From Escherichia coli (GTDB taxonomy: Bacteria > Pseudomonadota > Gammaproteobacteria > Enterobacterales > Enterobacteriaceae), in assembly GCF_036507355.1 (NCBI RefSeq), contig NZ_AP027878.1: 64,000 nt of DNA; one strand, 5' to 3'. Positions 5,501 to 8,488 of the stretch are shown here, in pieces. The notes under the pieces were generated by a model. It worked only from the letters and a program-made list of their open reading frames with translations. It searched no databases and was not told the DNA's origin. Numbering within the stretch: position 1 is the stretch's first letter; every line of letters starts with the position of its first letter. The position numbers and the translations under genes are program-made.

Positions 5501-8488
5501 ATGAGCTTAAGCGATCAGGTGGTAATGGCCACCAGCATAGAAACGCTGATCGAGCTGCTAAAGAACCTGCCCGATTATGGGCGGGTTTCGTATGTGGTGA
5601 CAGCGAAGGGAGACGAGGTAAAAACAGCGTTTGATATCGTCGATGCCTCAGCTCTTTTGGTATCCAATACTCTGGATGGGAAAATTAATCCTGACTATCC
5701 CCAGGAACTTCAGCCGCGCGACCGGACCCGCGCATCCAGCCTTCTTCAGGTTAACCAGATATCCAAAGATTTGCGGCCAGCTCAGCTTACTGATTCCGGT
5801 TTATCCAGCCATGGTGCGCCGATAATTGGTGAGGACAATGCCGTTGAGTCAGGTAATGGACGGACCATGGGGATCATCAAAGCCTATCAGGACGGCATTG
5901 CGGATCGGTATCGTGAGTACCTGATTGATCATGCGACCGAATTCGGCATACGACCTGAAAAGGTTGAATCAATGACGGCTCCGGTACTGGTGCGCCGCCG
6001 GTTAACTAAGGTTGACCGCGTTCAGTTTGCCAAGGACTCAAATATTTCTGATCTTCAGGAAATGGCAGCCAGTGAAAAAGCTTTTGTTGATGCCGACAGC
6101 ATAACACCGGCGATGATGGCGCTTTTTAACCCGTCAGAAAGCGGAGATCTGCTTAGCCGCAGTAATGACGCGTTTATTCGCGGATTTATGACGCAAGTTG
6201 GTGCTACACAGGCGGCTGGCCTTGTAACTGAAGATGGGCGACCAACACGGCAACTTGTAGACCGTATACAAAACGCGATCTTTGCCAAGGCATATAAGGA
6301 TGCGCGCCTGGTAAGGATGGTTGCAGAAGAACCTGATCCGGATATGCGTAATGTTCTGACGGCGCTTAATGCGGCAGCCAATGATTTTGTCCAGATGCAG
6401 GCTTTATCAGGAGAAGCGCACAAGCAGGCTGTGACAACTATTGTTGATGGCATTGAGACAGCGGATAGCCTCGATAAAAAGGCGCTGGAGGCATTGAAAG
6501 ATGCGGTAGACCTGGTAAGGCAATCGAAGGAGTCAGGCCAGCATATTACCGATGTTATTGCTCAGGGGGATATGTTCAGCGAAACGGCCCCGGAAGTGAA
6601 AGCACTCGCGTTGTTCATCGTCGCGAATAACCGTAGCGCGAAGCGTATGGCCACCGCCTTTAAGTTGATGGCTCAACGTATCAATGATGAGTTACAGCAC
6701 CAGGGCCAGGCGCTGGGGGATATGTTTGGCGGCGGCGATGTGTCGTTACAGGATATCCTTCGCCAGGTGTCTCAGGAACTGGAAAACGAAGGCATGCAAG
6801 GGATATCCGGCGGTCTTTTCGAGTCCGTTTCCGGCGGTAGTTACAACGGTGTTGCTCCATATACCAGTTTGCTATTACATCGGGCATCCGGCATCAAAGA
6901 CATTATTCATCTGATCAGGCTGCTTTCCCGTACAGATCCCCATGATGAACAGCTTGTACAAGTGCTTGCGCATTTTGTTCGAATGCCTGTTGCCGACGTG
7001 AAAAAATGGTGCCGATTATTCGGTATCAGCAATTCGTTACTTCGCGGCTTGTTAAATCACGCATCCTCCCTTGGGCGCGATGGCTTTGACGAGATAGCGC
7101 AGGCGATAAAAAACGGAGATATGCCACCAGCTATTGACTGGTTTTCCATTCGCCCAACCAGGGTGAAAGCATTCCTTAGCGCGGCGCATTCGGCATCATC
7201 ATTGGCAGAAATGGTTCAGAGGTTGTCGCTCATATTCACAGACCATACCGCGTTGGGTGATCTGACTCTGGACGAGATGAAAGATGCCTCCATTCAGTGG
7301 GCCGATCAACAAAATGAGGTTAACTCAGACTTCTTGACAGCATTCAGGAAGGCCGTTAGTAAAGCGGATGATGCCCGTGGAATTCTGAAGGCATTTAAGG
7401 CATTGCAAAGTCGTGTTAATAAACATGTCGGTGATATCGATGGGGTAACGGCGGAAGGCCGGGATATCCTTAAAGAGCACGGTATAACGCCAGAGTTTAT
7501 TGATGAGATCAGGACTGATATGCAGCGTGAGGTCGTATCGTCCCTGCAAATCGTAGCCAGAGCGTTGGCGGATGCTAATCCGAAGAGTGCGGCCATTGTT
7601 AACCGGGTTATTGGTGATATTGAAGCATCGGAGGGCATGGGGGTACTGAAACTCTTCCTTTCGCGAGCGTTTAATCCTAACGGCAATATTCTCCCTGGCA
7701 TTATTGGTGAGGCTAAAAAGTATGTCAGTGAAGAAGAACTTGAGCAGCTTGACCAACTACTTAAGCGATTCTCATATAACCCGCAGACACGCTGGCAAAT
7801 GAATCAGCGAAGTATGGGTTCGGTCCACGAGAAAGTGTTATCTGCCATGAACAGTGCGATCGCAAACTCATACGTATCTGAAGAAAAAGCTCTTGAGTGG
7901 GCCGACTCTTTTATCACAGAAGAAGTGGAAGAAGTCCGCGCTGGACAGAATGGTGGGATAGACCTGCGCAAGGAACTTGCTGATATTTATCGCCTGACCG
8001 GCGGGAAAATATCGACCTTATCAAAGGTAGTTCACCACCAGGGAAGGGCATATGCAAATCTTAATGGTGTTGTTGCTGTCAATTTGAACGATGAAAATGC
8101 AAGTGCACTGTGGCACGAGCTGGGTCATCATCTTGAGTACAGTAACCCTGGTTTGTTAGAGAAAGCCCGGTCATTCCTGAAGGCCAATGTTGAAGGGGAT
8201 AAGCCATCTTTCGTCAATATCGGTGGGCGTGGCAAGCCTGAATGGTGCTTCAGATCTCGATTGAGTAATATTTATATGGCGAAGGTATACCCGCCAGCCT
8301 CAGTAAGTAACACCGGGAAAATTCGGCAGAAATCTCCGACTATTTCCAAAACGTCAGCAACGGAAGTATTCTCTATGGCTCTTCAGTTGTATCATGACAA
8401 AGAGGCCGCTGCCGCATCACTGATGAATGGTGACGGATTGCTGGAACTGTTATTAGGTGTGGCAAAGGAGCTAAATAATGCAGATTAA
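5501..8488 (+). CDS. ddrB: DdrB, large Dar-operon protein carrying an HExxH motif
   Basis: 995 aa; WHELGHHLEY (nt about 8111-8140) is a zincin-like metallopeptidase signature. Confidence 0.65.
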   Translation: MSLSDQVVMATSIETLIELLKNLPDYGRVSYVVTAKGDEVKTAFDIVDASALLVSNTLDGKINPDYPQELQPRDRTRASSLLQVNQISKDLRPAQLTDSGLSSHGAPIIGEDNAVESGNGRTMGIIKAYQDGIADRYREYLIDHATEFGIRPEKVESMTAPVLVRRRLTKVDRVQFAKDSNISDLQEMAASEKAFVDADSITPAMMALFNPSESGDLLSRSNDAFIRGFMTQVGATQAAGLVTEDGRPTRQLVDRIQNAIFAKAYKDARLVRMVAEEPDPDMRNVLTALNAAANDFVQMQALSGEAHKQAVTTIVDGIETADSLDKKALEALKDAVDLVRQSKESGQHITDVIAQGDMFSETAPEVKALALFIVANNRSAKRMATAFKLMAQRINDELQHQGQALGDMFGGGDVSLQDILRQVSQELENEGMQGISGGLFESVSGGSYNGVAPYTSLLLHRASGIKDIIHLIRLLSRTDPHDEQLVQVLAHFVRMPVADVKKWCRLFGISNSLLRGLLNHASSLGRDGFDEIAQAIKNGDMPPAIDWFSIRPTRVKAFLSAAHSASSLAEMVQRLSLIFTDHTALGDLTLDEMKDASIQWADQQNEVNSDFLTAFRKAVSKADDARGILKAFKALQSRVNKHVGDIDGVTAEGRDILKEHGITPEFIDEIRTDMQREVVSSLQIVARALADANPKSAAIVNRVIGDIEASEGMGVLKLFLSRAFNPNGNILPGIIGEAKKYVSEEELEQLDQLLKRFSYNPQTRWQMNQRSMGSVHEKVLSAMNSAIANSYVSEEKALEWADSFITEEVEEVRAGQNGGIDLRKELADIYRLTGGKISTLSKVVHHQGRAYANLNGVVAVNLNDENASALWHELGHHLEYSNPGLLEKARSFLKANVEGDKPSFVNIGGRGKPEWCFRSRLSNIYMAKVYPPASVSNTGKIRQKSPTISKTSATEVFSMALQLYHDKEAAAASLMNGDGLLELLLGVAKELNNAD

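Follow-up and report, generated by a model that had tools for sequence, protein, structure and literature searches.

An open reading frame at nt 5501..8488 (+ strand) of the window, the 64,000-nt stretch of DNA that was analysed, encodes a protein of 995 aa plus a stop codon according to the ORF list and its translation. The gene is 99.3% identical to ddrB of phage P1 (NC_005856) across all 2988 nt, the C-terminal 255 aa of the two proteins are 100% identical, and PHROG 2299 matches the product end to end. The genes around it, all on the + strand, stand in the same order as in P1: hdf, darA, ddrA, ddrB, hxr and then darB. Upstream of ddrB lie hdf (2594-3205; Pfam DarA_N, E 3.5e-21) and darA (3207-5126; DarA_N, E 2.7e-42, plus DarA_C), both of which encode capsid-internal proteins. 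The small gene ddrA (5123..5488) occupies the interval between darA and ddrB, and hxr (8478..8786, 102 aa) overlaps the ddrB stop by 11 nt, both being taken from the ORF list and the P1 annotation. Farther downstream, darB (15794..22561) encodes a methylase/helicase cargo protein of 2255 aa with Pfam N6_Mtase, SNF2 and Helicase_C domains. Judged by full-length similarity and darA-operon synteny, the reading frame is the orthologue of P1 ddrB, whose product belongs to the six proteins that the P1 Dar antirestriction system packages in the capsid.

DdrB carries an N-terminal DdrB-type ParB domain at aa 36-167 (nt 5606..6001, +; Pfam PF18763 ddrB-ParB, E 1.2e-38) and a C-terminal zincin-like metallopeptidase (MPTase) domain at aa 775-995 (nt 7823..8485, +). 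It thus combines ddrB-ParB and protease in one large multidomain phage protein, which places it among the polyvalent-protein MPTases. The product of P1 ddrB was already annotated as "possible metallopeptidase" in the GenBank record of 2004 (NC_005856), and Iyer et al. 2017 (PMC5512222) explicitly named a C-terminal MPTase domain in DdrB and proposed autoprocessing. The protein studied here has the same gene, architecture and metallopeptidase prediction as P1 DdrB, with no biological difference. The motif and the metallopeptidase prediction were therefore known previously, and the existence of the motif is no discovery in itself. The present work adds a family census (366 cluster representatives), the set of invariant residues, a model of high confidence, an assignment of Y930 and E955 by likeness to anthrax lethal factor (LF), an insertion of the P1 clade and a recurrent DarA_N neighbourhood.

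An earlier note on this DNA had pointed to the peptide WHELGHHLEY at nt 8111-8140 as a metalloprotease-type HExxH signature with a downstream glutamate. The peptide was found at those positions, as aa 871-880, with HELGH (H872, E873 and H876) at aa 872-876 (nt 8114..8128, +). It is the only HExxH within the 16,100 aa of the window's ATG-started ORFs of at least 150 aa, and 0.028 occurrences would be expected by chance in DdrB from its own composition. A word-indexed homologue search retrieved P1-like proteins and fragments only. An exhaustive HMMER search gave 366 cluster representatives at E<=1e-3; with clustering at 50% identity, the domain family comprises 366 clusters or more. All 154 homologues covering the site keep HExxH, which shows that the motif did not arise by chance.

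For a closer look at the residues around the motif, we used a family alignment of 146 domain sequences with mutual identity below 50%. HExxH is present in 146/146 of them. Invariant or near-invariant across the family are R849, H872, E873, H876, E879, E914, Y925, Y930, E955 and S958, and each of the non-HExxH residues R849, E879, E914, Y925, Y930 and E955 is retained in at least 97% of the aligned domains. R849 (nt 8045..8047, +; R in 144/146) stands at the start of the second of three predicted strands. E879 (nt 8135..8137, +), three residues past the second His in an HExxHxxE arrangement, is Glu in 145/146 domains. E914 (nt 8240..8242, +; 142/146) directly precedes a predicted strand and is not part of a helix. 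Y925 (145/146) and Y930 (143/146) belong to the family motif PYVGKxY (nt 8273..8290, +), and E955 (nt 8363..8365, +; 144/146), from the motif TEVxSM, is at the N-terminus of a predicted helix, 956-962. Y930 and E955 are separated by 24 residues in DdrB versus a family median of 5 in this alignment, owing to an insertion at aa 931-954 (nt 8291..8362, +) that is present in the P1 clade and some others and is modelled with low pLDDT (block means 63-67). The P1 clade also has R910 where the family consensus is Y, N896 where it is R and A927 where it is G. A search of viral contigs for related loci gave 80 near-identical P1-like ones, of use for counting polymorphisms but not for diversity. Among 62 distinct P1-like ddrB sequences every key residue is fixed, and codons with synonymous versus amino-acid variants stand at 34:14 in the protease domain and at 120:81 in the middle region, which speaks for constraint on the domain.

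An alignment-based AlphaFold2 model of aa 775-995 reached a pLDDT of 91.9, and the single-sequence model (pLDDT 39) was useless. In the model, the HExxH helix comes after a sheet of three strands. DSSP placed the strands at 68-71, 77-79 and 83-86 in model numbering (DdrB numbering minus 774), so that they span aa 842-860 (nt 8024..8080, +) directly before the active-site helix. HELGH lies inside this helix, predicted at 868-881, where the pLDDT exceeds 90. A fold-similarity test found aa 775-995 to resemble solved zincins, and the closest structural relatives were highly specific toxin and effector endopeptidases, namely LF and the PPEPs. A Foldseek search of the PDB found nothing (best E 0.43, TM about 0.13), and one of BFVD returned uncharacterised phage relatives only. 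Taking the sequence family and the model together, aa 775-995 of DdrB almost certainly adopt a zincin fold.

Sequence profiles gave no such relationship. Profile searches of the C-terminal 195 and 295 aa against Pfam, the check proposed in the earlier note, yielded no significant peptidase family, and the same was true of the whole protein and of the middle region of DdrB. Over aa 775-995 there is no match to any Pfam model, the nearest being a sub-threshold LPD5 match at about aa 735-776 (E 0.088), and an NCBIfam scan of DdrB gave nothing. Across DdrB and 36 relatives no Pfam or NCBIfam peptidase model was significant; the best peptidase matches had E values of 0.004-0.16, each in one to three members. 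The M34 model ATLF (PF07737) did not match DdrB at E<=10 and reached E 0.034 in one of the 36 relatives. Searches of PDB sequences with a single-sequence query and with a profile HMM returned only noise plus, for the profile, a botulinum-like toxin (E 0.51), with LF absent. Because the family lacks a Pfam or NCBIfam model, its members are routinely called "hypothetical" in phage annotation. Motifs this short can occur by chance, and Pfam has no peptidase model that matches here, but the conservation, the AlphaFold2 model and the structural comparison rule out a chance HExxH in a non-enzymatic region, and we regard that reading as having practically no probability. The family-wide conservation and the predicted fold thus support the metalloprotease-type signature that the earlier note had proposed.

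The active site was tentatively assigned by comparison with LF, using a segment 100% identical to residues 660-776 of 1j7n. With default settings, hhalign aligned the C-terminal segment only, placing E955 on LF E735. A permissive run (-mact 0.05) gave a co-linear alignment, at a probability of only about 5%, which placed R849 on LF R664, HExxH on H686/E687/H690, E879 on D693, Y930 on Y728 and E955 on E735. By this alignment and the model, H872 and H876 would be two zinc ligands and E873 the general base, and Y930 is the probable catalytic tyrosine. The co-linear alignment with LF points to E955, on the "glutamate helix", as the probable third zinc ligand rather than the glutamate within the motif. 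The downstream glutamate of the earlier note, E879, therefore stands as a near-invariant residue and probably not as the third ligand; in a related phage MPTase clade the equivalent Asp points into the pocket (Iyer et al., PMC5512222). E914 is an alternative candidate for the third ligand.

The likeness to peptidase family M34 and its relatives, namely LF, PPEP-1, PPEP-2 and PPEP-3 and MtfA (M90), is structural, and no significant sequence-profile match from the DdrB family to these proteins was found. The spacing from His to Glu is 62 in the family median and 78 in DdrB, in contrast to 44 in LF. In M34 enzymes the Glu follows the Tyr by about seven residues, whereas the two are separated by a median of 5 intervening residues in the family and by the 24 mentioned above in DdrB. 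The family also has an extra conserved beta-hairpin, which bears E914, and its domain is found in cargo proteins of phage capsids rather than in secreted toxins. ArdC of conjugative plasmids, with an ssDNA-binding N-domain and a C-terminal metalloprotease, has only a distant structural likeness to DdrB; it differs in its DNA-binding domain (ArdC-N versus ParB-like) and in its route of delivery (conjugation versus the phage capsid). A pairing of the ImmA/IrrE (M78)-Xre type was rejected, since Hxr gave neither an HTH nor any other Pfam match at E<=1 and the likeness to IrrE is far weaker than that to LF-like enzymes. A prohead maturation protease was rejected as well: that role belongs to Pro, which has an HHpred match to T4 gp21 (PMC9024508 supplement), the fold of DdrB is that of a zincin and not gp21-like, and ddrB is non-essential by CRISPRi (PMC10695390).

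The relatives were also compared for their other domains and gene neighbourhoods. Among 72 relatives, ddrB-ParB was found in 12, Phage_Mu_F in 7 and InPase in 2; many have either MuF or nothing that is recognised as a domain. Of 7 informative loci from distant relatives, 5 have a DarA_N gene directly upstream of the MPTase gene or separated from it by no more than one small gene, and large effector-like genes occur near MPTase genes in distant loci. These neighbours, the DarA_N gene and the large effectors, suggest that the domain helps to handle the cargo of the capsid.

DdrB is represented by 39 peptides in the P1 virion, and the table that reports this also states that it aids DarB loading (PMC9024508). 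The Dar proteins load sequentially on DarA/Hdf, and the prohead protease Pro, not DdrB, is credited with the processing of DarA (PMC12810830). Processing of DdrB to about 76 kDa is cited in the text of Iyer et al. 2017 (PMC5512222), a claim that rests on Lobocka 2004 and on Walker and Walker 1981. The 2022 virion proteome (PMC9024508) gives for DdrB the mass predicted for the full-length protein and makes no mention of processing; the Gonzales 2022 supplement is without a peptide map for DdrB. Our literature search found no experiment on DdrB proteolysis and no published zinc-binding or peptidase assay.

On balance we lean towards DdrB carrying an LF-like (M34-like) gluzincin endopeptidase domain for limited proteolysis of packaged Dar cargo. 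The mechanism that we infer from the conserved motif, the fold of the model and the gene neighbourhoods would involve a capsid-packaged "polyvalent" protein with a ParB-like N-terminus and the protease module at its C-terminus. Zinc would be bound by the two histidines of the active-site helix, H872 and H876, and by E955 on a later helix, E873 would activate water, Y930 would stabilise the transition state, and E879, one turn on along the helix, may support the site. Limited proteolysis would act on DdrB itself, as proposed by Iyer et al. 2017, and/or on a partner such as DarB, either during loading onto the in-capsid DarA/Hdf layer or upon release into the cell. By its conserved residues and model the domain is probably an active peptidase; its substrate may be Dar cargo or DdrB itself, an assignment that we hold only tentatively.

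DdrB could instead be an effector protease that is injected with the DNA and cuts a specific host protein, such as a type I restriction subunit or another defence protein. The nearest structural relatives, LF and the PPEPs, do cleave specific targets, DdrB has been placed in one group with DarB and Ulx as regards the EcoB/EcoK phenotype (PMC12810830), and action after injection was also considered by Iyer et al. (PMC5512222). However, Dar works solely in cis, on the DNA of the same virion, and a protease that diffuses freely and destroys an enzyme of the host is therefore hard to reconcile with it. Since, in addition, the only function stated for DdrB in the sources consulted is the help with DarB loading (PMC9024508) and no host substrate is known, we consider a host-directed protease unlikely. 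A protease tethered to DNA, in which the ParB-like domain would hold the incoming DNA while the zincin strips off bound proteins such as translocating restriction complexes, much as SprT/Wss1 or ArdC would, appears highly improbable: structural matches of the SprT/Wss1/ArdC type score well below the LF-like ones, and the ParB domain is found only in the 12 of 72 relatives noted above. The third ligand of SprT/Wss1 is His-based, unlike the Tyr/Glu constellation of the LF type, which also argues against such a tethered enzyme.

That the stated function of DdrB is DarB loading (PMC9024508) would also suit a non-catalytic adaptor that keeps the zincin fold and docks DdrB, and thereby DarB, on the in-capsid DarA/Hdf layer. 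The MPTase-containing region of the N4 vRNAP, for example, is needed for encapsidation, and that polymerase is packaged without being processed (Iyer et al., PMC5512222); the insertion of the P1 clade and its several departures from the family consensus fit this idea as well. The catalytic residues, however, are invariant both in the 146 sequences below 50% identity and in the 62 P1-like variants, as would not be expected of a domain without catalytic activity. We judge an adaptor improbable, and prefer limited proteolysis of the Dar cargo. A working protease, if true, would offer a mutable handle (E873A/H872A) on the loading, trimming or release of cargo or on the cleavage of a host defence protein, and would bear on the use of P1 as a protein-delivery vehicle.

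A wider and rather doubtful possibility is that DdrB, beyond processing itself, represents a sequence-specific endopeptidase of the LF type that enters the cell together with the phage DNA and would either cut a host defence component or, tethered through ParB, strip restriction complexes from the incoming DNA in cis. The protease, the DarA_N proteins and the giant effectors would then make up a widespread cargo module of three parts, perhaps under the control of the small protein encoded at the 3' end of the protease gene, which in P1 is Hxr. A comparison of the small proteins established no link between two groups: Hxr and the small protein of L005 are clearly related, and those of L012, L009 and L094 resemble one another. 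Small overlapping genes downstream of the MPTase gene recur in the relatives.

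The window contains a P1-type punavirus. The ORF at 5501..8488 (+) encodes the 995-aa DdrB and is 99.3% identical to P1 ddrB at the DNA level over its whole length; the C-terminal 255 residues show no differences from the P1 sequence. Around ddrB lie the P1 darA operon genes and, beyond them, darB: lydA/lydB lie ahead of hdf (2594-3205), darA (3207-5126) and ddrA (5123-5488), hxr (8478-8786) overlaps the 3' end of ddrB, and IS1, ssb, lyz, pro and prt come in that order before darB (15794-22561). At 9692-10389, between isaB and isaA, two ORFs of 91 and 167 aa fit IS1 insA/insB in length and position, and because they occupy the same place in the P1 reference, the window has the IS1 insertion of P1. 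An antisense ORF of 132 aa within ddrB, at 6055-6453 (-), matches iddB of P1, which is annotated with "unknown protein function". In the P7 records AF503408 / NC_050152, the features under the ddrB match (27681-30668) are named prt and odaA, not ddrB and hxr, which suggests that the annotation of this record is misnamed or offset.

The earlier note placed a zincin-like motif, WHELGHHLEY, in DdrB, and it was found exactly there, at nt 8111-8140 (aa 871-880), with HExxH itself at nt 8114-8128 (aa 872-876). It is the sole HExxH in 16,100 aa of the window's long ORFs, with a chance expectation in DdrB of 0.028 given the protein's own composition. When aa 741-995 were searched exhaustively with phmmer against 1.84 billion cluster representatives, 366 proteins matched at E<=1e-3. 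Lack of conservation in homologues had been named as grounds for dropping the motif; HExxH was kept by 154/154 retrieved matches covering the site, which refutes a chance occurrence, and the three matches without it are fragments ending short of the site. In the domain alignment, H872, E873 and H876 are each present in 146/146 sequences, followed by E879 and Y925 (both 145/146), R849 and E955 (both 144/146), Y930 (143/146), E914 (142/146) and S958 (137/146). None of the key residues varies among 62 distinct ddrB sequences taken from P1-like viral contigs. For the sequence-based reading of HExxH as a real active-site motif, this conservation is decisive.

Pfam found a single domain in DdrB, the N-terminal ddrB-ParB (aa 36-167, E 1e-38). 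The proposed comparison of the C-terminus with peptidase profiles gave nothing, with no Pfam match even at E<=10 and none in NCBIfam, and PDB sequence searches were also empty. The domain at window 7823-8485 belongs to a family of ~220 aa that numbers at least 366 clusters at 50% identity and for which neither Pfam nor NCBIfam has a model; PHROGs covering it are labelled "unknown function", and the protein is "hypothetical" in most phage records. AlphaFold2 without an alignment reached a pLDDT of only 39; with A1, the family alignment of the domain's relatives, it gave a pLDDT of 91.9 and a pTM of 0.89 for aa 775-995. The predicted fold comprises N-terminal helices, three strands (842-860), the HExxH helix (868-881), a second helix, a beta-hairpin and a last helix that starts directly after E955. 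A Foldseek search of this model against the PDB found no match, and similarity to solved structures is therefore distant.

The zinc ligands of anthrax lethal factor (LF) are H686, H690 and E735, with E687 as the general base and Tyr728 as the transition-state residue. We compared A1 by hhalign with a C-terminal LF segment confirmed to be identical to 1j7n residues 660-776. The first run aligned only the C-terminal part and placed E955 on E735; a more permissive run was co-linear over 106 columns and paired HExxH with H686/E687/H690, E879 with D693 and Y930 with Y728. The latter alignment is consistent with the family pattern PYVGKxY-(~5 residues)-TEVxSM, which resembles Y728-x6-E735-FFAEAF of LF. 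E955 is therefore the probable third zinc ligand, with E914 as an alternative candidate. The downstream glutamate of the earlier note, E879, does exist and is conserved, but since it aligns with D693 it is probably a second-shell residue. The motif is confirmed, and the zincin-type reading is supported with the ligand so corrected. Y930 and E955 are separated by a Ser/Thr/Lys/Pro-rich, low-pLDDT insertion of 24 residues (aa 931-954, window 8291-8362), where most relatives have ~5 residues; it is present in P1 DdrB, its closest relatives and some others, and might serve as a flap or a regulatory loop covering the active site.

A metallopeptidase domain in DdrB is already known and the finding is not new: the P1 reference record calls ddrB a "possible metallopeptidase" and the phage JL22 record a "putative metallopeptidase", and Iyer et al. 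2017 (PMC5512222) assigned DdrB a DdrB-ParB domain and, at the C-terminus, a zincin-like MPTase. That study cited processing of DdrB to ~76 kDa, proposed autoproteolysis, and sorted polyvalent-protein MPTases into 12 clades not specifically related to earlier-defined zincin clades, one being tied to LF by HHpred. DdrB was detected in virions by 39 peptides (59.5% coverage) and listed as helping DarB loading (PMC9024508); loading of Dar proteins onto DarA/Hdf is sequential, with DarA cut by Pro (PMC12810830), and ddrB is non-essential (PMC10695390). In our literature search, which did not reach Piya 2017 and Lobocka 2004, no experimental work on protease activity of DdrB turned up.

The protease domain is C-terminal in 75/145 representatives and internal in 69/145, and shares its protein with ddrB-ParB (12/72), Phage_Mu_F (7/72) or InPase (2/72). 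In a DdrB-like operon (L005, 44% identical) and in the metagenomic loci L006-L008, L010 and L012, the protease gene has a DarA_N gene directly 5' of it or separated by no more than one small gene, as the window has hdf and darA (2594-5126). Overall this arrangement holds in 5/7 distant contexts that were informative, and a large effector-like gene often follows; DarA_N was not detected in locus L094 or beside the protein of Vibrio phage VP-1. Xanthomonas phage Rb1 has an InPase+DarA_N+DUF2958 protein, named "internal head protein", on the upstream side and a DarB-like ATPase on the other, and MuF-fused versions adjoin a 2398-aa ART-domain giant protein. These neighbours place the protease in capsid-cargo modules whose core is a DarA_N or MuF protein together with large effectors, and suggest that DarA_N, protease and giant effector may form a conserved one. 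The middle of DdrB (aa 168-774, window 6002-7822) contains no recognised domain, apart from a sub-threshold LPD5 match at ~aa 735-776; its first part, to ~aa 500, is common to giant phage proteins (PHROGs 5143, 14770, 15406). Among P1-like phages, polymorphism within DdrB is highest there, with amino-acid variants in 81/642 codons. Synonymous to amino-acid variant codons number 120:81 in this middle part, 34:14 in the protease domain and 39:13 in the ParB domain, so relative amino-acid polymorphism is lower in the latter two.

Most likely, the C-terminal domain would be an active LF-like gluzincin performing limited proteolysis of packaged Dar cargo, either DdrB itself or a partner, timed to loading or release. 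A catalytically idle adaptor domain is disfavoured because every catalytic residue is invariant. Dar is effective only in cis (PMC12707154), which speaks against a freely acting, host-directed effector protease but would fit a DNA-tethered one of the SprT or ArdC kind.

In distant relatives, too, the 3' end of the protease gene is repeatedly overlapped by a small gene of 96-134 aa: hxr in the window, and 8711-9001 in L005, 10630-10920 in L012, 3194-3487 in L009, 12076-12372 in L094 and 9535-9939 in L010. The P1 annotation calls Hxr an Xre-like repressor, and the protein has an acidic C-terminal tail; Pfam found neither an HTH nor any other match in it. Homology between Hxr and the L005 protein is clear, and the proteins of L012, L009 and L094 resemble one another; any tie between these two groups would be tentative. 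The small product may act as a partner of the protease or inhibit it.
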